A stretch of DNA of 63,230 nucleotides, counting the filler. It is 10 parts of 10 records of this genome, joined end to end, with 100 filler letters (N's around TTAATTAATTAA, not from the genome) between each part and the next. Parts side by side here need not be neighbours in the genome. Positions count along the whole stretch, not along the records: positions 29,684 to 34,899 come from SRR31147125_5572; 9 more parts are not named here. One strand, 5' to 3'. Under the pieces are notes generated by a model that was not told the origin of the DNA, did not search any database, and saw nothing but the letters and a program-made list of their open reading frames with translations. The position numbers were made by a program, and so were the translations under genes. Of the stretch, positions 8,442 to 57,127 are shown one piece after another (position 1 is the first letter of the stretch; each line of letters begins with the position of its first letter).

Positions 8442-8541
8442 NNNNNNNNNNNNNNNNNNNNNNNNNNNNNNNNNNNNNNNNNNNNTTAATTAATTAANNN
8501 NNNNNNNNNNNNNNNNNNNNNNNNNNNNNNNNNNNNNNNNN
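8442..8541. other. Artificial contig linker N44-TTAATTAATTAA-N44; also at 17715, 24150, 29584, 34900, 40526, 45668, 50983, 57028
   Basis: Identical 100-bp spacer with stops in all six frames; composition and gene content change at each. Confidence 0.98.
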
Positions 8542-10715: not shown

Positions 10716-11974
10716 ATGCGTTTATTCTATAACCTTATACAGCTTCTTCTCGCTCCGGTTTTTTTTATCGTTCTGCCCGTCTATTTACTCGCACGACCGG
10801 AGAAATGTAAAACAATTTTTCCAAAGCTCGGTCTCGGTGTTGAGCCCGTTACCAGACAGGAGGGTCCGGTTGTCTGGATACATGCGCTATCGGTAGGTGA
10901 AGTGACGTCGGCACTCCCTCTTGTCCGCCGTTTGAAGGAAACATGTGACCCCACCCCTGCCATTGTTTTTACAGCCTCAACCGTGAGGGGCTCGAGGTTG
11001 CCCGCAGATTGCTTCCCCGATACTGTGATCAACTGACCTACGCCCCGATTGATATTCTTCCCGCAGTGCGTCACTTCATCAAACGAATAGACCCGAATCT
11101 CTTTATTCTGGTAGAGACCGACTTCTGGCCCAACCTACTCCACTCGCTCAAGGCAGCTGATATTCCAGCCCTTCTGGTTAACGGCAGAGTATCCAATTCA
11201 TCGATGAGGAAATACCGCAGGTTCGCCTTCTTTTTCCGACCGCTTTTCGATCGATTCGATGCTCTCTGCATGCAGAGCGAAGCGGATGTCGTCAAGATCA
11301 CGCAGCTCGGTATCGATGAGGCAAAAATTCACTTGCTTGGAAACCTGAAATTTGGACACCTGTATACCCCTGTACCGGAATCATCCGGACCGGCCCCCTT
11401 CCCCGAGGACCAGCTGGTGATTCTCGCCGGTTCCACTCACGATGGGGAAGAGAGGATGATCTTCGAGCAACTCAACGCCATCAGCGCCGATTTCAAAGAA
11501 ACTCACCTGGTCATAGCCCCTAGAAATATCGATCGTGCTCAGGAAATCTCCACAATGGCGGAACAGTATGGGTTGCGTACCAGCCGGTTTTCCCGAGCCG
11601 GGAATGTTCCTCGAGATGTAACCATCATTGACACGATCGGTGATCTCTCCGGACTCTACGCTTTCAGCGATATCTGTTTTATCGGAGGCAGCCTCGTCGA
11701 CCAGGGGGGCCACAATCCCATAGAAGCTGCGAGCGCCGGCAGACCCGTGCTGTTCGGACCCTCCATGGATGACTTCACAGATGTCAGCCGGGGGCTTATT
11801 AATGCCGGTGGTGCAATACAGGTTCTCGATGCAAAGGAGCTGGGCCGGACACTCAAAGCCCTTCTTGACTCCCCGGATGAGCGCTCCGCATGCGGTCGAA
11901 AAGGGTTTGAATTCGTACTGCAGAATCAGCACGTACTGGACGATCACCTGACTGTCATCAGTCCGTTTCTGTGA
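10716..11974 (+). CDS. waaA: Kdo transferase, frameshift near 10981
   Basis: VWIHALSVGE, ETDFWPN, AGSTHDGEE, GGHNPIE; one extra C joins the two ORFs (STREGLEVARRLLPR). Confidence 0.9.
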
Positions 11975-17714: not shown

Positions 17715-17814
17715 NNNNNNNNNNNNNNNNNNNNNNNNNNNNNNNNNNNNNNNNNNNNTTAATTAATTAANNNNNNNNNNNNNNNNNNNNNNNNNNNNNN
17801 NNNNNNNNNNNNNN

Positions 17815-20258: not shown

Positions 20259-23200
20259 ATGAAAAAAATTACGTTTCTTTTTTATTTGTTCTTTTCGGTT
20301 ACAACTGTTTTTTCGCAACAGAATCATGTTGTGACAGGTAATGTAACTGAATCTGTAAGTGGTGAGCCAATTCCTGGAGTAAGTGTTGTTGTTAAAGGCA
20401 CAACAACAGGTACAATCACTGACTTTGATGGTAACTACACAATTGAGACAGCTGGTACTGATGTGCTTGTGTTTAGTTTTGTGGGATTAGAAACCAAGGA
20501 GCTTGCAATTAATAATATGCGCACCTTAAATGTTTCTCTTCAGGAATCTACTGAGCTTGTTGATGAAGTGGTTGTGGTTGGTTATGGTACGTTAAAGGTG
20601 AAGGATTTAACTTCTTCAATTTCAACCGTAAAAGCTGATGATCTTATAAAAACACCAACTGGTCAGGCAATGCAGGCTTTGCAAGGAAAAGTTGCAGGAT
20701 TACAAGTTGTAAGTGCTGGTGCTCCGGGAGAAAGTCCAACCATTCGTGTACGAGGTATTGGTTCTTATCCTGGAAGGGGAAATGAAGATCCTTTATATGT
20801 TGTTGATGGTGTCTTTTTTGACAATATCGATTTTTTGAATACTGCAGATATTGCATCAATCTCGGTACTGAAGGATGCATCAGCTGCTGCTATTTATGGT
20901 GTTAGGGCTGCAAATGGAGTAGTGCTGATTGAAACTAAATCAGGCTCACATAATCAAAGTGCAGAGATTGTGTATAATGGTTATTATGGACATCAGATTG
21001 CTCAAAATGTATTAAAAATGGCAAATGCAGAGCAGTTCACAAACATGGCTTTAGAATCTGGATCAGCTGCTGATGCGAGTTTTATTTTAAATGCAATGCA
21101 GCGTTACGGGAGAAGTCGAGTTAATCCAAATGTACCTGATGTAAATACAGACTGGTATGACGAGATTATGCGAGTTGCTCCTATTCAAAACCATAGTTTA
21201 AGCGTTTCAGGTGGAAGTGAAAAAGCAACCTATTCCCTTGGCTCAAGCTATTTCTCGCAAGAAGGTATTTTGGATATGAAAAACGAATATGAGCGTTTTA
21301 ACCTTCGTTCAAAAATTGATTATCAGGCAAATGATTGGTTGAAAATGGGTGCAAATATGATTTTCAGCAATGCAACAAAATATTTACCGGAATCAGGTGC
21401 ATGGAATCAAGCTTACTTTGCAGTTCCAATTCTTCCAATTTATGATGAAGAAAACCTGGATGCCAATCCAGTTAATTATGCAAGTGCTCAGAGTATTGGT
21501 TATCGTGGTGGGCAAAACCCATTTCCAACTCTTGAATTTAACGAAAACAGACAAAAGATAAGAAAAGTGCTTGTTAATTTCTATGCTGAAGTTGACTTGC
21601 TTCCAAAGAAACTGAGCTTAAAAACAACCTATAACCAAAGCTTTACTTCAATTAATCAGCGGAATGTGAATTTACCATATTTTATTACAAATGGTTTTCA
21701 GCGAGCTGACGCTGCTGTTACTAAAAGGGTTGAAACATTTTCAAACCAAACTTGGGATAATGTTTTAACCTACAACGATATTTTTGGAGATCATAAACTA
21801 ACGGTTATGGCAGGTTCGTCGTATCGTGATGTGGCATGGGAAATGCTTACCGCAAAAGGATTAAACTTCCCAATTGATCAGGAAGAAGCGTGGTATATTG
21901 AACAATCGGAGACTGTTCCTTCTGAAGATGTTCATGATGACGGAACAAGACAATACGGAATGTCGTATTTCGGAAGGGTATCGTATAACTATAAGGACAA
22001 GTACCTGTTATACGGTACAATGAGAGCTGACGGCAGTTCTAAATATCAACAAAAGTGGGGTTATTTCCCAACAATTGGTGCCGGATGGGTAATTTCAGAA
22101 GAAACATTTTTAGAAAATGATGATGTGATCAATTTCCTTAAACTACGTGCTAGTTGGGGAGAACTTGGGAATGATAAAATTCAGGCAAGTGATGGTGCGT
22201 CAACAACAACTGTTGTTACAGGTGCTTTCGATGATACATTGCTATCTGGAAATACGACTTCAAATACATTCTCTTCATTGAAATGGGAGGTTACTGAAGA
22301 AACAAATGTTGGACTTACAGCTCACCTTTTTGACAGCAGGCTAACAGTTGATGCTGACTATTTTATTCGTGATACTAAAAATGCTGCGATTAACGTAATT
22401 ATCCCATCAATTGGAGGAAGTGTTTTGAAAAATGTTGGAGAAATAAGAAACTCTGGTTTTGAGCTGGCATTAAATTGGAGCAACCAGATATCAGCGGATC
22501 TTAGCTATAATGTTTCTGCTAACATATCAACTTTAAAGAATGAAGTAATCGATTTGTTTGGACAACCTCATATTGATGGTGGCTCGGCAGAGTTCCGTCA
22601 GCGATCAATTGTAGGTGAACCACTATTGGCTTTCTTCGGTCGTGAAGTGTTAGGTGTTTACCAAAATGAAGCTGAAATACAAGCAGACCCAATTGCTGTA
22701 GCCAACAATCTAGAACCGGGAGATTTTATTTATAAAGACCAAAATAACGATGGAGAAGTAGATGATGATGACCGTGTTGTTTTAGGTTCTTATTTTCCTA
22801 CGTTCATGTATGGCTTTAATTTGGGGATTAACTACAAAGACTTTGAGTTCTCGACAAGCATAATGGGGCAATCAGGAAACAAAATATTGAACCGGAAGCG
22901 TGGTCAGTTAATTTGGACGAATGATGGTAACCTTGATGCTGATCTGGCAATAAATCGTTGGCATGGAGAAGGAACCTCGAATAAATATCCTTCGTCTAAA
23001 GGCCTGCGAAAAGGATGGAACCAGAAAATGAGTGACTACTTTGTAGAAGATGGTTCATTCTTCAGAATTCAAAATATTCAACTTGCATATAATATTAGGG
23101 GAAAAATTGGTTCGGAGCTCAAATTCCTGAATCCAGAATTTCCTTAACTGCAGAGCGCCCTCTTACTGTATTTAACTACAATGGATTTAACCCTGAAGTT

Positions 23201-23272
23201 GCAAACGGGATTGATATGCAAACATATCCTGTTCCGGCGGTATATACAATTGGGCTGAATGTTAAATTTTAA
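20259..23272 (+). CDS. susC: SusC/RagA TonB-dependent receptor, frameshift at A run ~23102
   Basis: VLKDASAAAIYGVRAANGV plug motif; adding one A restores ...YPVPAVYTIGLNVKF*. Confidence 0.92.
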
Positions 23273-23291
23273 TTTTTAAAGAGTAATTATT

Positions 23292-24149
23292 ATGAAACTA
23301 TTAAAATATTCTATAAAGCTCACTCTTATTGCAGTTATGCTTTTTGCAGCAACAGCCTGTGAGGACATTTTAGATGAGCCGGCTGAAAATAAATCATTTA
23401 CTGATGAAACTGATTATACCATTTCTGATGATATGATTCTACCTCTTCTAGGTGCATATTCTGAATTTTATTCACGTGGTTGGGAAGAATTTCCATTGCT
23501 AGCCGTTAGAGGTGATGATGTGAATGCCGGTGGTTTAGGCGATCAACAAGATTATGCTGAAACAGATAAGTTTAATTACAATAAAGATTATTGGATGTAT
23601 AATTCTTTGTGGCAGAATTATTATCGTGATATGTACCATGCATATTCATCGCAAGATCAAATTGAGTTGTACAAAGAAAATGGGGCAAATGCATCATTGG
23701 CCGATCAGTATATTGCTGAAACAAAAGTGTTACGTGCTTGGTATCTGTTCAATTTAGCACGTGTATGGGGAGAAATATTAATCCCTACTAGTTCTGATCC
23801 TTCAGATCTGCTAGTTGCCGAATTAGTTTCTAAAGTAGAGGTAATGCAGTTTATTTCAGATATGATGGATGAAGCAACGCCATCTTTGACCGATAGCCAC
23901 CCAAATCAACGAACTGATGTTCCTGGAGGTGTAACCAAGTACACGGCTCTTGCTTTGAAAGCATTAGCAAACCTTGAAATGAAAAATTACCAAGGGGTTG
24001 CAGATGCTACTTCACAAATAATTAGTTCGGGAAGGTTTGCCTTGGAAACTGATTTTTACGAGTTATTCAAAATTCCGGGTAAATTAAGTAATGAGAATAT
24101 TCTTGAACTGCAATATTCTGACTTTGGGCAGGGGGCTGGTGATCAAAAA
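23292..24149 (+). CDS. susD: SusD/RagB lipoprotein (3' partial)
   Basis: Lipobox ATAC, follows susC, LRAWYLFNLARVWG. Confidence 0.9.
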
Positions 24150-24257
24150 NNNNNNNNNNNNNNNNNNNNNNNNNNNNNNNNNNNNNNNNNNNNTTAATTA
24201 ATTAANNNNNNNNNNNNNNNNNNNNNNNNNNNNNNNNNNNNNNNNNNNNCACTGTAG

Positions 24258-24648: not shown

Positions 24649-26848
24649 TCACAATTCATCATGACCAAAGTCCTCCTCGTCGTCTTCCTCGTCCCCGTAT
24701 CCTGCAGGACCACCTCCTTGCTCTTGATAAATCTTGGTGATGATGGGATTGGCAACCTTTTCAATTTCCTTCAGCTTGGATTCGTATTCCTCCTTCTCGG
24801 CATCCATATTGTCTTCCAACCACTCCAAGGCATCATTGACCGCCTCAGTAATAGAAGCCTTATCCTCGTCGGAAATCTTGCTTCCAATGTTCTCCTCATC
24901 CTCCACCGTGTTCTTCATGGTGTAGCAGTAGTTCTCCAGTTGATTCTTGGCATTGATCTTGTCTCGCAACTCTTTGTCCTCTTCCGCAAACCGCTCGGCC
25001 TCCTCCACCATGCGCTGAATCTCCTCCTCTGATAAACGTCCCTTCTCTGCCTTGATCACAATCTTCTCACTCTTACCCGTCCCTTTGTCTTGAGCCATCA
25101 CTTGCAAGATTCCATTGGAGTCAATCTCGAAAGTAACTTCAATTTGAGGAACACCGCGCGGGGCCGGAGGAATCCCTGTCAAATCGAACTTGCCCAGCAA
25201 GTGATTATCCTTTGTCATGGCTCGTTCTCCCTCGAACACTTGAATCAGAACGGCCGGCTGATTGTCTTGGTAGGTGGAGAAGACTTGGGACTTCTTGGTG
25301 GGGTAGACTGTATTCCGTGTGATGAGCTTGGTGAACACACCGCCCACAGTCTCAATGCCCAGAGACAGAGGAGTTACGTCCAGAAGCAAAATGTCCTTTG
25401 TCAACTCGTCATCCTCCTTCGAAAGGATTCCACCCTGAACAGCCGCTCCATAGGCAACGGCCTCGTCGGGGTTGACGCCCTTGTTGGGTTCTTTCCCGTT
25501 GAAAAAGTCCTTGATGAGTTGCTGAATCTTAGGAATGCGCGTCGAGCCACCCACAAGGACAATCTCGTCAATTTGCTCCTTTCGCATTCCTGAATCGTCC
25601 AAAACATTCTGGATTGGCTTCAAAATCTTCTTAAACAGGTCCATGTTGAGCTCCTCGAACTTTGCACGTGTGAGGGTTTCGGACAAATCAATTCCGTCCA
25701 GCAACGACTCGACTTCCACGCGAACTTGGTGAGTGGTCGACAGGGCACACTTGGCACGCTCGGCCTCACGCTTCAACTTCTGTGTAGCGCGTCGATCCTT
25801 GAAGATATCCTTGTTGTGTTTCTTCTGGAACAGCCGTCGGAAATGGTCCATGATCCGCTGATCAAAGTCCTCGCCCCCGAGGTGAAGGTCTCCACTTGTC
25901 GCAATAACTTCAAAGATTCCACTATCAATGGTCAAAAGCGACACGTCGTACGTGCCGCCACCCAGATCCGTGACGATAATGTTCAGCTCCGCGGTGGCTC
26001 CCTTCTTATCCAGACCGTAGGCGATTGCCGCGGCGGTCGGTTCATTGAGAAGGCGCATCACGTTCAATCCTGCAATTGTACCCCCATCCTTGGTTGCCTG
26101 ACGTTCAAACGAAGGTTGAGGGGGACGAGAAGGGAAAAGCAGGGACCCTAGCTGCGTACCTGCCGCTGGGCGTCGTTGAAGTAGGCGGGACATGTCACGA
26201 CAGCGTTTCGGATTTTCTTTCCCAGAAACGCTTCCGCCGTCTCCTTCATCTTCGTAAGCACCATGGAAGAGATTTCCTCAGGAGAGAACACTTTCTTCTC
26301 GCCCTTAAACTTGACTTCCACGTATGGTTTCTTGTCTCGGTTCACAAGTTTGAAAGGATAGATCTTTCGATCGCGCTGAACTTCGGCGTCGTCCCACGTG
26401 CGACCAATGACACGTTTGATGTCGTACACCGTATTCTCTGGATTAAGGGCCCCTTGATTCTTGGCCGCCTCTCCAATGAGACGTTCAGCATCCGTAAACG
26501 CAACCCACGATGGTGTGATGCGGTTCCCTTGGTCGTGGCAATGATGTCCACACGTCCGTTCCGGTAGATGCCAACCACCTTCGTACGAGAGTCAGGGATG
26601 GCCAAGACAAGAACCCAAACCATATACCAACCGAGTACGTAGTTCCCAAGTCAATCCCTACGACGGTCCCAACGGGTTCATCACTTCCCGACTCGTTGTT
26701 GTCCTCTTTGGCAAGGACGAATGCCGTCACAGCCAAAAAACAAATTACTATAGTTGTGGATGTGTGAGAGAGACGCGTCGTTGTCTTACACACGCGTACA
26801 CACACGCGTACACACACACGCACACAGCACAAACTGCCCAGGCTTCAT
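24649..26848 (-). CDS. BiP: Eukaryotic ER Hsp70 (BiP), 4 exons: 26848-26824, 26747-26632, 26578-26160, 26097-24649
   Basis: Signal peptide [31 protein letters not shown]-terminal HDEL; three GT-AG introns of 76, 53 and 62 nt; one missing A near 26537 (IIANDQG). Confidence 0.9.
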
Positions 26849-29583: not shown

Positions 29584-29752
29584 NNNNNNNNNNNNNNNNN
29601 NNNNNNNNNNNNNNNNNNNNNNNNNNNTTAATTAATTAANNNNNNNNNNNNNNNNNNNNNNNNNNNNNNNNNNNNNNNNNNNNTTTTCCGGGGACGGTTT
29701 AATGGCTACTGCACGGACACGGGGGGCTTCTGCAGCCCCTGTGTCCGTGCCA

Positions 29753-30418
29753 TCAGTAAGTCCTGAACTTGACCCAGCTGGGGTCCGTGTGGAGCAACAC
29801 ACCAATCTTAGGATGCTGCTTGTCGGGATCCGACTCACCGGACTCTTCAGGTTTGTATTTCGGACCATTGGCGTCCATTGCCATCTGCCTGCTGTCGGGA
29901 ACGTAAAACTCCACGCCGTCAGAGAAAACAAAATCGATCTGGTACGATTTGTCATCGAGCCACCTCGGAAGCGGGAATTTTCGGTGCCAGTACGGCCACG
30001 AACTACCGTGGATCTTCGTCCACCACAACCTGTCCCGATCATCCCCGGAGGCATTGGGATTTCCACCCCAGTTGATCGTCGTCCACTCAGATTCCACAGC
30101 GGCGGACGAAGCTGCATCTTCCTGCTGGGCATCGGTGCTGTCCGCAGTTGCGCTTTCAGTGGTTGATGCCGTCGCTCCTTGGATCTCTGCTTCAGCCTGT
30201 TCAATGGCCTTTACCAGCTCTTCGGTAAATCCACTCGTGGTTGCATGAGCCGGAAGGGCACCAAACTCGATCAGAGGAGTGGTCCACCTGTCGGGCAGCA
30301 GACTGCAGCCGGTTAACGCGGCTGTACCCACTGCCAGTTTTTTAATGACGACTCGTCGATTGCTCTGTACGGAAAGGGAGGGATTACTGCTCTGGGGGCT
30401 GTCGTTGATCGTTGCCAC
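29753..30418 (-). CDS. Exported protein with Tat-like leader and WxxP...LPAHA motif
   Basis: NRRVVIKKLAVGTAALTGCSLLPDRWTTPLIEFGALPAHATTS; GAGG RBS before GTG. Confidence 0.65.
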   Translation of the reverse strand: MATINDSPQSSNPSLSVQSNRRVVIKKLAVGTAALTGCSLLPDRWTTPLIEFGALPAHATTSGFTEELVKAIEQAEAEIQGATASTTESATADSTDAQQEDAASSAAVESEWTTINWGGNPNASGDDRDRLWWTKIHGSSWPYWHRKFPLPRWLDDKSYQIDFVFSDGVEFYVPDSRQMAMDANGPKYKPEESGESDPDKQHPKIGVLLHTDPSWVKFRTY

Positions 30419-30640
30419 TGTAACCTCTTACTGTAGTTAATCTCGTATCCTGGGCGATCACGGCAAATATTGAAGGGAAGATACCTGATTTGTAGAGAAA
30501 AGCAACCATAAGATTCGTGTATGACATTGAAAAAACAGTAAAAATTAAACTAACAGGGCAAGCACCACAACGTATTACCGGTTATTTATTTAATATTTTC
30601 AACAACTTGCGTCGGGCAAAAAACGGTGGTATCGTATTGA

Positions 30641-31096
30641 CTATTCCTCTGAAGTTTCGGGAACCTGGACCATAATCACCCGACCAACAGCGCACACTGT
30701 CTGCGCAGCTTTCAACGATAAATCGACCGTTACTTTACGCCCTTTGATCTCCACGACCCTTCCCCGCACTTCCAGTTCCACCCCCAGGGGGGTCGGCTTG
30801 AGATAATCGACCGTGAGTGACGCGGTAACAAACCTGTTTACCGTTTCACCCATTGCCCTGGCCTTGGCGGCAGCCGCGGTTCCGGCACCATGGCAGTCCA
30901 TGATCGAGGCGATCATCCCGCCATAGAGAAAACCCGGGAATCCCCCACTGTAATGCTGTTTCGGCGTATGTCGGCAGACGCTTTCATCACCGTCCCAGTA
31001 GCTCTTGAGGTGCAGACCGTGCGGATTATTGCGGCCGCACCCGAAACAATGCGCATAATCGTCGGGGTATTGATCCTGAAAAGCCTGCTCTGTCAT
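30641..31096 (-). CDS. PaaI / hotdog-fold thioesterase
   Basis: CFGCG.NNPHGL, YGGMIASIMDCH, TASLTVDYLKPTP. Confidence 0.88.
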   Translation of the reverse strand: MTEQAFQDQYPDDYAHCFGCGRNNPHGLHLKSYWDGDESVCRHTPKQHYSGGFPGFLYGGMIASIMDCHGAGTAAAAKARAMGETVNRFVTASLTVDYLKPTPLGVELEVRGRVVEIKGRKVTVDLSLKAAQTVCAVGRVIMVQVPETSEE

Positions 31097-31283
31097 ACCA
31101 TTACCTCGCAAAGTGGGGTATCTGACGGCCATGGTCGATCACCGCCGTGTCCGTTTCTGTGTTTCGTTGCAGGAGTGGTCATCACCAATAAAATGCATAT
31201 AGATACCAATGCCGGTACCTTTTCATTTCACAACATACGGGAACTCTGAATAATAACACAACCAACCTTGAAATCAGCTTATT

Positions 31284-31766
31284 ATGAACCATCAGAAAGA
31301 CGACGACAAACAAAGAGAGGAAAGCGGTTCCACCACCCTGGATACCTTTTACACGGAACTCGGGCAGACGTACCAATCGATCGCCGGAAGTGCCCAGCCG
31401 CCCATTGCAAAGCTGGGGCTGTTCGCTACACGGTCGCTGCAGCTTTTCGAAACCAGGCAGGAACATTTTGCAGAAAACCCGGAAACGATGATCGGCCCCT
31501 TCACCGGGAACCATCAATCGTGGTTGAGCACCCAATGCGCGTTGTTCGCCGAAACCATCGGTAATGCGGTCACAGGTGGGAAGTTGAGACCAATTGACAC
31601 CGAACGTGCCGGTATGCTGTTTCTCAACGCGATTTTCGGGCTTATGCTCCGCCGCGTTCACCTGGATGTGGCGGAAAGCATCGAAGATGATGTGCGCGGT
31701 CTGATCGATATCTTTCTGAACGGACTCACCCGGTCACGGATACCGGTCCCGGTCAAGCCGGCCTGA
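31284..31766 (+). CDS. TetR C-terminal-like domain protein without an HTH
   Basis: AVTGGKLRPID...FLNAIFG...IDIFLNGL resembles a TetR ligand domain. Confidence 0.5.
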   Translation: MNHQKDDDKQREESGSTTLDTFYTELGQTYQSIAGSAQPPIAKLGLFATRSLQLFETRQEHFAENPETMIGPFTGNHQSWLSTQCALFAETIGNAVTGGKLRPIDTERAGMLFLNAIFGLMLRRVHLDVAESIEDDVRGLIDIFLNGLTRSRIPVPVKPA

Positions 31767-31774
31767 GAAACATA

Positions 31775-31809
31775 CAAAAAGGGAGCGTTCAGACTTAGCT
31801 GAACGCTCC
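31775..31809 (-). terminator. Rho-independent terminator downstream of the octaheme gene
   Basis: 11-bp stem GGAGCGTTCAG/CTGAACGCTCC followed by CTTTTT on the minus strand. Confidence 0.8.
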
Positions 31810-31853
31810 TGGCAAACCGGCTCATATTCCAGGCCGGCACACTCCATACCTGA

Positions 31854-33320
31854 TTAATTGTCCGGCAGTCTCTTCGCTCTCATCGGGTCACCGTCGTAGC
31901 CGAGTGCAACCCAGTCGAGCCGCTTGCCGCTTTTGTGACAGTCCAGACATTTGAGGGCCTTTTCCTTGGGATCAACCTGATGGTTGATCGGCCAGTAGGT
32001 CTCGGTCCTCGCGAACCCATATTCACCGCTGTACTCAAGCCCGCTCACCTTCATTCCTGCTGCAGCCGCCTTGTCCCAGTCAAAGGTCGTCCAGTATGCC
32101 TCGGGATCACCTTTCTCTCCCCAGACCTTCGGGGTAATCAGATAGTTGTAGGTGGAATCATAGATTTGTTTGCCGGTGTGGATCTTAAACGGCATGATCT
32201 TCGCCTCGGAGTCGTCTCTGCTCCCCAACGGGTAGTTCAGCAAGGTCACCCCACTCGGGTCAATCTCATCCCCGATCGTATAGGCCCCGGCCGTTCCGTT
32301 GTACCAGCGGTATGCGGGGACCGCATCGTGCTCGTATACGAACTCACCCTTTTGCGCGATGAATACTTTGTGTCCGTCTTTTGTGATCACGCGTTTGTCT
32401 TCGGGAAGCGTCTTCGGGTCCACCGCTTTTGACCAGTCCCAGGACATCTTGGTGCCATCAGCCTTGGCGAAATGCGAGATATGGCAGGTCTGACAGGCAA
32501 TCCTCTCCGTGTGAGCGTTGTACTGCTCGGCAGTCGGGAAATACCGGTGCGGGCTTTCACCGTGGCAATCGCTGCACGACATGGTGGTTTCACCGCCGGC
32601 GGATACGATCAGCGAGTTTCCGGGTATATCATGGGGGGTGTCGGATGCATGGCATTGCTGGCAGGTAAAATTGAGCCCTTTAGTATCCATGTGCACGTCG
32701 AGTCCCCGCGCCGGGTTTTTCATCGCGTTACTCATATCACCGGCCTTCACGTTATTGCCCCCGCCGCCGAACGCATGACAGACGATGCAGTTCTCGCGAG
32801 TCGGCATTCCGGCATTTCGGGCAATCTCTTCGAGATCGACCGGGTTCTCATCCATCTTTGCATTGTTTGTAAATCCGGCGGGATAACCGGCACCGGCACC
32901 GGGTTTGACATAGTTCCCGGTGGTGTCGTGGCAGACGAGACAATCGACCCGCGTTTCATCGGCAAAATCAAAATTCTCATCCACCCAGCCGTACCCGACA
33001 TGACAGCTCGTACAGCGGGCCCAGTTCGCACCGATAGATACGCAGAAATTATTGATAACATTTGTTTTTCCACGTACCACCTGGCCTTTGCCCGGAATCT
33101 CCTGCAACCGTTTCCAGGTCCAGTGGCTCGTTGCCATCACCTCACTGGCCGCGTCCTCATGACACTCGAGGCACATCTCGGTTACTTCCATGGGTGTGTC
33201 GAAAGGCCCTTCGATTTCGTGATGATCGTTAGCTCGGGCCGCTCCATCCCAGACACTGAGCAGCACGCACACCACTGCCGTAGCGACGACAATCATTGAC
33301 AGGTTTCTCTTGTTAACCAT
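31854..33320 (-). CDS. Octaheme tetrathionate-reductase (OTR) family cytochrome c
   Basis: Eight CxxCH motifs, HWTW, GKTNVINNFC, CTSCHVGYGW; Sec-pathway signal peptide; GAGGAG RBS. Confidence 0.9.
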   Translation of the reverse strand: MVNKRNLSMIVVATAVVCVLLSVWDGAARANDHHEIEGPFDTPMEVTEMCLECHEDAASEVMATSHWTWKRLQEIPGKGQVVRGKTNVINNFCVSIGANWARCTSCHVGYGWVDENFDFADETRVDCLVCHDTTGNYVKPGAGAGYPAGFTNNAKMDENPVDLEEIARNAGMPTRENCIVCHAFGGGGNNVKAGDMSNAMKNPARGLDVHMDTKGLNFTCQQCHASDTPHDIPGNSLIVSAGGETTMSCSDCHGESPHRYFPTAEQYNAHTERIACQTCHISHFAKADGTKMSWDWSKAVDPKTLPEDKRVITKDGHKVFIAQKGEFVYEHDAVPAYRWYNGTAGAYTIGDEIDPSGVTLLNYPLGSRDDSEAKIMPFKIHTGKQIYDSTYNYLITPKVWGEKGDPEAYWTTFDWDKAAAAGMKVSGLEYSGEYGFARTETYWPINHQVDPKEKALKCLDCHKSGKRLDWVALGYDGDPMRAKRLPDN

Positions 33321-33409
33321 ATTTCTCCTCATTGCGTACGTTTCAATGGCAGGGAGCCGAGCGTTCCGGCTGACCCTGCCTGAAGTTGTAGATCTCGTCA
33401 ACCTGACGG

Positions 33410-34761
33410 TCAGGACTTCAGTTTCTGCAACGCCTGCTCCGCCGCTATTGTAATTGGCTCTGCGCTCGGTTCGGATGAAATATCCGGGTTACAGGCCGAC
33501 GTAAAGGTGGTCAATTCTGCAATCGTCCTGCCACCCAGTATGAAGGCACTGACCGCATCGATTTCCCGGGCCGGGGCGATGTCGTGACTGACGATCTGCC
33601 CGCCGATCAGCCTGGTGCTGCTTCGATCGAACACGAGTTTGATTTTCCACGGTTTCATTCCGGGAATCATGTTGTGTTTGCTCCTCGAGTCTACCACCGC
33701 AGAAACCGTGTCGTACCCTTCCTCCACCGCACGGGTTTCCGTCAGACCGGTGGCGGTGATGGTCATATCGAACATCTTGCAGCCGCCGGCATCGAGAACT
33801 CCGGGAAAGGCTATCTCGTATCCGGCCAGGCGCTTTGCTGCCAGCCTGCCTTGCACAACGGCCGGTCCCCGCAGCTGTCCCGGAGTAGGTTTCCCGGTTA
33901 TGAAATTGACTTTTTCGACGCAGTCTCCACCCGCCAGGATATCGGGATCCGACGTTTCCTGGTACTCGTTCACCTTGATACCGAACTGTCCCATCTCCAG
34001 CCCAATCTCCTCGGCAAGCCCGAGATTCGGTCTCACGCCGACATTCATGAACACGACATCGGCGGCTAGTCTGTCCCCGCCATCGAGTTCAACACCTGTG
34101 ACCCGGCCGTCAGCGCCGACTATTTTCTCGACCTTTCTCCCGGTAAACACGTGCAGTCCCTTTTCCTCCAGGTAATCCCGGACAGGGACGGCCATCTCAC
34201 CATCGAGCATCAGCGGCAACGGACGGTCCATCAGTTCGACCACCGATATGTCGTATGAGGAGTCCGATTCTGCGAGCAATGAAGCCACCTCCATACTGAT
34301 GAAGCCGGCCCCGATACATACGATCTTCCGCCCCCGCTCTCGGACAGAAAATTTTTGATTTCCACCGCATCCGGCAGCCCACGCAACGTCAGCACTCCCG
34401 CCAGATCGGCTCCTTCTATCGGCGGAACAAACGAGCGCGAACCGGTTGCCAGAAACAGTTTATCGTAGTCGAACGTCAGCCCTTCCCGGGTATTTACCCG
34501 CTTGTGATCAGCTTCGACGGAAACGACTTCGTCCTGCACCACGTTGACACCAATGCCCTCCAGCATTTTGTCAGGAACGACGATGGAATTCTCAGCGACC
34601 AGACCGGCCGTTACATGGGGCAGCGCTCACCTGACAATGAAGAATTCTTCCTTGCGTACAACCGTGACATCGACTCCCGGCATCAGCTTTTTCGCCATCA
34701 TGGCCGCAGGACCGCCTGCTCCGCTGCAGCCGACAATAATCAGTTTTTCTCCGTCTTTCAT
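33410..34761 (-). CDS. FAD-dependent pyridine nucleotide-disulfide oxidoreductase (NADH oxidase / CoA-disulfide reductase family), predicted selenoprotein (Sec45); extra frameshift ~34331
   Basis: IIVGCSGAG, ATGS, IGAGFISME, TSDPDILAGGD; in-frame TGA 34629-34627 in FIVR-U-ALP at the redox Cys position; GGAGG RBS. Confidence 0.85.
34596..34610 (-). promoter_or_regulatory. Bacterial SECIS-like hairpin
   Basis: CGGCC-GGTCT-GGTCG starting 17 nt after the TGA; apical GGUCU as in the E. coli fdhF SECIS. Confidence 0.7.
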
Positions 34762-34999
34762 GGAAACGCCTCCGTTGATTAGTCAGTTGTGTTCAACACA
34801 TCACCATCATATCCCTTCGAAACTATTTAAGTCTTTGGTTAAACACATATACTCAAAATAAGAGCCGTTGAAAAGGAAAAACGAAACACCTGACAAAAAN
34901 NNNNNNNNNNNNNNNNNNNNNNNNNNNNNNNNNNNNNNNNNNNTTAATTAATTAANNNNNNNNNNNNNNNNNNNNNNNNNNNNNNNNNNNNNNNNNNNN

Positions 35000-40525: not shown

Positions 40526-40625
40526 NNNNNNNNNNNNNNNNNNNNNNNNNNNNNNNNNNNNNNNNNNNNTTAATTAATTAANNNNNNNNNNNNNNNNNNN
40601 NNNNNNNNNNNNNNNNNNNNNNNNN

Positions 40626-45667: not shown

Positions 45668-45767
45668 NNNNNNNNNNNNNNNNNNNNNNNNNNNNNNNNN
45701 NNNNNNNNNNNTTAATTAATTAANNNNNNNNNNNNNNNNNNNNNNNNNNNNNNNNNNNNNNNNNNNN

Positions 45768-50982: not shown

Positions 50983-51082
50983 NNNNNNNNNNNNNNNNNN
51001 NNNNNNNNNNNNNNNNNNNNNNNNNNTTAATTAATTAANNNNNNNNNNNNNNNNNNNNNNNNNNNNNNNNNNNNNNNNNNNN

Positions 51083-57027: not shown

Positions 57028-57127
57028 NNNNNNNNNNNNNNNNNNNNNNNNNNNNNNNNNNNNNNNNNNNNTTAATTAATTAANNNNNNNNNNNNNNNNN
57101 NNNNNNNNNNNNNNNNNNNNNNNNNNN

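Follow-up and report, generated by a model that had tools for sequence, protein, structure and literature searches.

A candidate selenocysteine-containing flavoprotein of the CoA-disulfide reductase/NADH oxidase group in Desulfobacterota

FAD-dependent oxidoreductases of the CoA-disulfide reductase (CoADR)/NADH oxidase type are entered as a selenoprotein family in tables of PMC9312934, PMC13188914 and PMC1794560. A published example is WP_011365774.1 from Geobacter metallireducens, which is assigned to COG0446/TIGR03385 and carries the motif UGxP. The NADH oxidase family is represented by one selenoprotein, that of Geobacter metallireducens, in the table of PMC1794560, and one family member is recorded for the Olavius delta-1 symbiont in PMC1976440. 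The first-pass annotation of the locus described here had regarded selenocysteine (Sec)-containing NADH oxidases as known from a few deltaproteobacteria, which agrees with the tables in PMC1794560 and PMC9312934. Going by these tables, the enzyme type is already on published selenoprotein lists and no new kind of system is involved.

The locus was found in a window of 63,230 nucleotides (positions 1-63230), by which we mean the whole stretch of DNA that was analysed. It is read from the minus strand and has the following features, with positions counted along the window.

33410..34761, minus strand: Sec-candidate flavoprotein gene of about 450 codons with Pyr_redox_2, Pyr_redox and Pyr_redox_dim domains
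34769..34773, minus strand: ribosome-binding site GGAGG, separated by a 7-nt spacer from the ATG at 34761-34759
34711..34731, minus strand: FAD glycine-rich dinucleotide-binding motif GCSGAGG (residues 11-17), containing Cys12, which is invariant in the clade
34627..34629, minus strand: UGA codon 45 at the catalytic Cys position, predicted to encode Sec (TGA in 76/76 orthologous loci)
34596..34610, minus strand: SECIS-like hairpin, with the 5' arm CGGCC at 34610-34606, the loop GGUCU at 34605-34601 and the 3' arm GGUCG at 34600-34596
33412-33410, minus strand: terminal stop of the flavoprotein gene, a TGA

The start ATG, the GGAGG and the TGA at codon 45 all lie where the first-pass annotation had placed them in the minus-strand reading of the window. 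Translation from the ATG gives MKDGEKLIIVGCSGAGG...EEFFIVR, then the TGA at codon 45, then ALPHVTAGLV...MLEGIGV, all in one frame. Positions 2-137 of the Pfam profile Pyr_redox_2 span the TGA, and Pyr_redox and Pyr_redox_dim match the remainder of the gene; the three domains cover the full length, both in the two pieces of the window's gene and in an intact orthologue. The orthologue in locus L002 has 450 residues and a single TGA.

The protein aligns over its full length with the solved Cys enzymes 6pfz (Archaeoglobus NADH oxidase NoxA-3), 6ruz (Thermus NADH oxidase), 4fx9 and 3kd9 (Pyrococcus CoA-disulfide reductase) and 1joa (Enterococcus NADH peroxidase), with E-values from 9e-67 to about 5e-44, and shares their FAD, NAD and dimerisation domains. 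The alignments to 6pfz, 6ruz and 4fx9 place the redox Cys of these enzymes at residue 45. The protein encoded here carries a predicted Sec where the solved enzymes have Cys, a His where they have Tyr four residues further on, and Cys12 within the glycine-rich motif. The best NCBIfam models are those for CoA-disulfide reductase and NADH oxidase, both scoring far under their cut-offs. The CoADR model TIGR03385 gave 263.3 bits with the intact orthologue against a cut-off of 578.8 (70.5 and 167.8 bits with the window's two pieces), and the H2O-forming NADH oxidase model NF046103 gave 170.5 bits with the intact orthologue against a cut-off of 600. With scores so far under both cut-offs, the substrate may differ from those of the solved enzymes. 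The NCBIfam search matched no selenoprotein model apart from a weak match to an unrelated sulfide:quinone reductase model.

The window's gene and the UGxP family, as published, share the domain family, a Sec at the catalytic Cys followed by x-x-P, and an origin in Deltaproteobacteria/Desulfobacterota. The motif in the window is UALPH, which differs from that of WP_011365774.1, compared by motif only, in having Ala for Gly after Sec, with the Pro kept. The invariant His49 and Cys12 of the window's clade further set it apart from the UGxP family as published. Besides the UALPH clade, a second and distant Sec clade of the enzyme family (32% identity) was observed, whose catalytic column is likewise occupied by an in-frame TGA, here within GA-U-ELPYY.

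L081:198-200 and L082:1287-1289: TGA of the UELPYY clade, with L091 and L092 as relatives

A search of the UELP clade for the Geobacter reference protein gave six loci, none of them from Geobacter. Since this distant Sec clade exists, the published family label probably covers several separate clades.

The UGA codon and the redox cysteine column

Relatives were collected from one genome per species; 89 were found and the best 80 were kept. In tblastn with the N-terminal piece from the window, 76 of the best 80 loci aligned over the column of codon 45. Three of the others (L034, L046 and L069) are on contigs that end before the column, and the fourth (L041) has no N-terminal part. TGA was present at the codon-45 column in all 76 orthologous loci covering it, flanked by FIVR and ALPHV, and the taxa that bear it include Desulfofustis, Desulfopila, Desulforhopalus, Desulfosarcina, Desulfatitalea, Syntrophobacteraceae and others. 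One and the same tblastn alignment passes through the TGA column, so that, in agreement with the first-pass annotation, the stop did not arise through an indel. Among 401 genomes sampled evenly across the phylum, exactly one TGA was found in each of the nine listed matches of at least 50% identity; the next three (L083-L085, 41-43% identity) have no TGA and carry Cys at the column. An apparent internal TAG in two homologues proved to be the ordinary stop codon at the gene end.

Enzymes of the single-Cys group have one redox residue near position 42-45 in the context C-(G/A)-x-P, and residue 45, where UGA stands in the window, corresponds to it. Among the best 120 database proteins listed, the only full-length one is P0003 (450 aa, encoded on a 1.8-Mb contig, 73% identity). 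Its residue at column 45 is Cys, and it carries Tyr at the position where all 73 Sec forms have His49, which suggests that the two positions change together. The pairing of Cys and TGA at one column, which had been proposed as a check on the locus, is therefore seen in both forms, with TGA in the 76 orthologues and Cys in L083-L085, in P0003 and in the CoADR/Nox chains. In the 73 complete orthologues, 102 columns are invariant, including G11, C12, G14, G16, G17, U45, H49 and C281.

We conclude that the gene very probably encodes an FAD- and NAD(P)H-dependent enzyme of the single-Cys CoADR/NADH oxidase/NADH peroxidase group, of the homodimer type, in which the redox Cys is replaced by Sec. The idea of a Sec-containing flavoprotein, put forward when the locus was first annotated, finds support in the conservation of the UGA, in its pairing with Cys and in the covarying hairpin described below. 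In the mechanism that we propose, SelB carrying Sec-tRNA(Sec) would bind the hairpin on the translating mRNA and insert Sec at the UGA. Sec45 would receive electrons from NAD(P)H by way of FAD, a route to residue 45 that we infer by homology. It would cycle between the selenolate and an oxidised state, either a selenenic acid or a selenenylsulfide formed with a thiol of the substrate or of a protein; candidate substrates are a low-molecular-weight disulfide or persulfide, a peroxide, or O2.

The invariant residues also allow a different mechanism to be considered, which we judge unlikely. The orthologues would then form a separate subfamily of the CoADR/Nox fold, found in many Desulfobacterota, with a Cys12/Sec45/His49 signature; unlike the single-Cys enzymes, it might work through a Sec45-Cys12 selenenylsulfide or on a sulfur or selenium substrate characteristic of sulfate-reducing bacteria. 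Sec was the state in all 76 species-level loci examined, with P0003 as the only full-length Cys form seen. The presence of Sec in every orthologue examined makes the enzyme a handy natural case for the benefit of Sec over Cys, a question that here concerns the sulfenic-acid and mixed-disulfide chemistry of the CoADR/Nox fold.

The reading frame on either side of the UGA codon

The ends of the gene at 33410 and 34761 and the reading of the TGA stood as first annotated. In the window's assembly, however, the frame from 34761 is lost before the gene end, through a homopolymer frameshift that the first-pass annotation had overlooked.

34331..34335, minus strand: G5 homopolymer at which the window's frame breaks, one base short of the orthologues and of the contig from run X1

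Beyond about residue 143, the frame from 34761 contains 12 further TGA and 6 TAA or TAG codons, and the C-terminal 305 codons are in a different frame at 34327-33410. In the orthologues, the C-terminal piece begins 101 codons from the TGA, a spacing that implies one base more than the window carries. A contig of 11,980 bases from the public run X1 showed no other letters than the window over 33300-34899, with one extra base at the G run. The extra base, one C behind 34330 on the plus strand, is at full depth and makes a G6 that restores the frame. Codon 45 is an unchanged TGA in this contig, and so in a separate assembly; because the window may itself have come from the X1 sample, the contig is counted as a second assembly and not as an independent sample. 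Given the G6 in an otherwise identical contig, the break at 34331-34335 is an error of the window's assembly and not a property of the gene. Runs X2 and X3 contained diverged fragments of relatives only, and the runs listed as containing the sequence included no RNA run.

As assembled, the window's copy combines an in-frame TGA with the break at 34331-34335, as would a pseudogene carrying a nonsense mutation and a frameshift. We consider a pseudogene highly improbable: TGA is conserved in 76/76 orthologues, the X1 contig lacks the frame break and matches at every other base, and genes that look split on other contigs of the window also point to assembly errors.

Still less probable is that the UGA is an ordinary stop, with the product a protein of about 385-410 residues started downstream and the 44-codon frame a separate small ORF or leader. 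This is how the gene has been called in databases, where 119 of the best 120 proteins listed are N-terminally truncated, have about 385-410 residues, and contain neither the FAD motif nor the catalytic residue. The view that ORF callers had missed the gene is borne out by these missing N-termini. Against termination at the UGA, protein-level conservation extends in frame over the 44 upstream codons. All 73 complete orthologues begin with ATG (69) or GTG (4) exactly 44 codons before the TGA with no stop between, and the upstream codons hold the invariant FAD-binding motif that the truncated form would lack together with its catalytic residue. Profile matches cross the TGA, and the hairpin behind it covaries. 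On sequence grounds, the upstream 44 codons are translated. Public protein sets thus truncate the flavoprotein gene almost everywhere (119/120 of the best listed), and the annotation in many Desulfobacterota genomes would be mended by a curated model based on sequences of the UALPH clade.

The hairpin behind the UGA codon and the Sec machinery of relatives

The hairpin CGGCC/GGUCU/GGUCG reported in the first-pass annotation is present at the place given there, and we found it to be conserved and covarying in 76 sequences. It begins after 16 intervening nucleotides, and its loop starts 21 nt past the UGA. The GGUCU loop may be comparable to the apical loop of E. coli fdhF, a likeness pointed out in the first-pass annotation. 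An alignment (A1, 76 sequences) was made of the window's stretch and 75 distinct stretches from orthologues. RNAalifold applied to A1 predicted just this hairpin, and all 5 pairs are standard in 76/76 sequences. Compensatory changes were seen at three of the five stem pairs, namely at pair 23:37 (UA 38, UG 29, CG 9), pair 24:36 (GC 47, AU 19, GU 10) and pair 27:33 (CG 75, AU 1). The stem has 5 bp in the window and extends to as many as 8 bp in other loci. For the 8-pair extension, 88.5% of cells were paired, compared with 18-53% when the 3' partner was slid by one to three columns, and none of 500 shuffles matched the observed percentage paired or the covariation score of the 8-pair version.

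Codon usage adds to this pattern. The invariant residues A46, L47, P48 and V50 are encoded with all four bases at the third codon position. A52 is GCC in 75/76 sequences and G53 is GGT in 74/76, with GGT making up only 22% of the Gly codons elsewhere in these genes. Frozen synonymous sites at A52 and G53 next to free neighbours argue for selection on the RNA. Judged from these substitution patterns, the hairpin is under selection as RNA; it is located in coding sequence, and its conservation is partly at the protein level.

The bSECISearch consensus model, as described in PMC13188914 (Fig. 2 legend), takes a loop of 3-9 nt, a stem of 4-16 bp, G in the first two loop positions, a UGA-to-loop distance of 16-37 nt and an energy limit of -7.5 kcal/mol. 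The window's 5-nt loop, 5-bp stem, GG-first loop and 21-nt spacing are all in the range of this bacterial SECIS model. Its energy is -6.6 kcal/mol compared with the limit of -7.5 kcal/mol, with the 21-nt hairpin alone scored. Across the 76 sequences, the 21-nt hairpin reaches -7.5 kcal/mol in 65 and falls short in 11, with a median of -9.7. No lower stem of the hairpin was found. When the 63 nt that follow the UGA were folded freely, the minimum-energy structure was a different one, no better than shuffles (z = +1.96). Rfam and tRNA scans of the window gave no match, and a permissive Rfam scan of 34540-34660 detected no SECIS family, with only a chance snoRNA match at E = 0.47.

As a proxy for the source organism, we searched the Sec machinery in the genomes of five relatives carrying the flavoprotein gene. 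selA and selD scored over the cut-off in 5/5 relatives, tRNA-Sec in 4/5 and selB in 3/5, with a partial copy of selB in a fourth; the misses of selB and tRNA-Sec fall in incomplete metagenome bins. Each selD in the five genomes (G001-G005; for example G005:C1:4927117-4928043) contains one in-frame TGA, which suggests that selD of these genomes itself encodes a selenoprotein.

The machinery was searched for in genomes of relatives, which leaves a very slight chance that the UGA is read as another residue without Sec machinery (Cys or Trp by near-cognate decoding, or through a reassigned code); TGA also terminates the window's gene and 18/73 orthologues and so is not reassigned, a SECIS-type hairpin is kept by RNA-level selection, and relatives with the gene have selA, selB, selD and tRNA-Sec.

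The contig of the flavoprotein gene and the remainder of the window

The window is made up of 11 separate contigs, each between 5 and 9 kb long, and the spacers that join them consist of N44, 12 nt and N44.

8442-8541, 17715-17814, 24150-24249, 29584-29683 and 34900-34999: N spacers
40526-40625, 45668-45767, 50983-51082 and 57028-57127: remaining N spacers
29684..34899: contig carrying the flavoprotein gene, 5216 bases, GC 0.542, with N spacers on both sides
31854..33401, minus strand: multihaem cytochrome c gene, directly downstream of the flavoprotein gene on the same strand (Pfam Cytochrome_cB, 4.5e-65)

GC varies from 0.29 to 0.54 across the contigs, which probably derive from different source organisms. 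Being unrelated, the other contigs are no stand-in for the genome bin or for the Sec machinery of the source organism. A histidine kinase and a binding protein beyond 34900 were considered as upstream neighbours and ruled out, as they are on another contig.

On the gene's own contig, the cytochrome c gene is the only likely co-transcribed neighbour. A cytochrome homologue was found near the orthologue in 3/76 loci only (L014, L072 and L075), where it is upstream, and no other flanking protein of the window recurs near the orthologues of the 76 loci. When the flanking ORFs of the orthologues were clustered, any one neighbour occurred in at most 15 of the 76 loci, the commonest being a PAS-sigma54 activator (15), an SBF transporter (13) and a thioredoxin (9). 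With no neighbour common to more than 15/76 loci, the flavoprotein gene appears to stand alone, without conserved operon partners. In L010, the Sec gene is directly preceded by the gene for a paralogous pyridine nucleotide-disulfide oxidoreductase (L010:1273-2760), which is 495 residues long and free of internal stops.

Several observations concern the other contigs. A Kdo transferase on the plus strand looks split, over two overlapping frames at 10716-11036 and 11009-11974 (Pfam positions 12-68 and 70-177), and the frame of an Hsp70 at 24649-26193 on the minus strand does not begin until profile position 148; indel errors in the assembly could account for both. At 20259-24149, a TonB-dependent receptor (CarboxypepD_reg and Plug) adjoins a SusD-like gene, and no relatives of this receptor were found in the five Desulfobacterota genomes searched. 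The low-GC contig at 1-8441 carries genes of phage or plasmid type, including those for an ArdC-like protein, Siphovirus Gp157, a Rad52/22 recombinase and a ParA-type ATPase.
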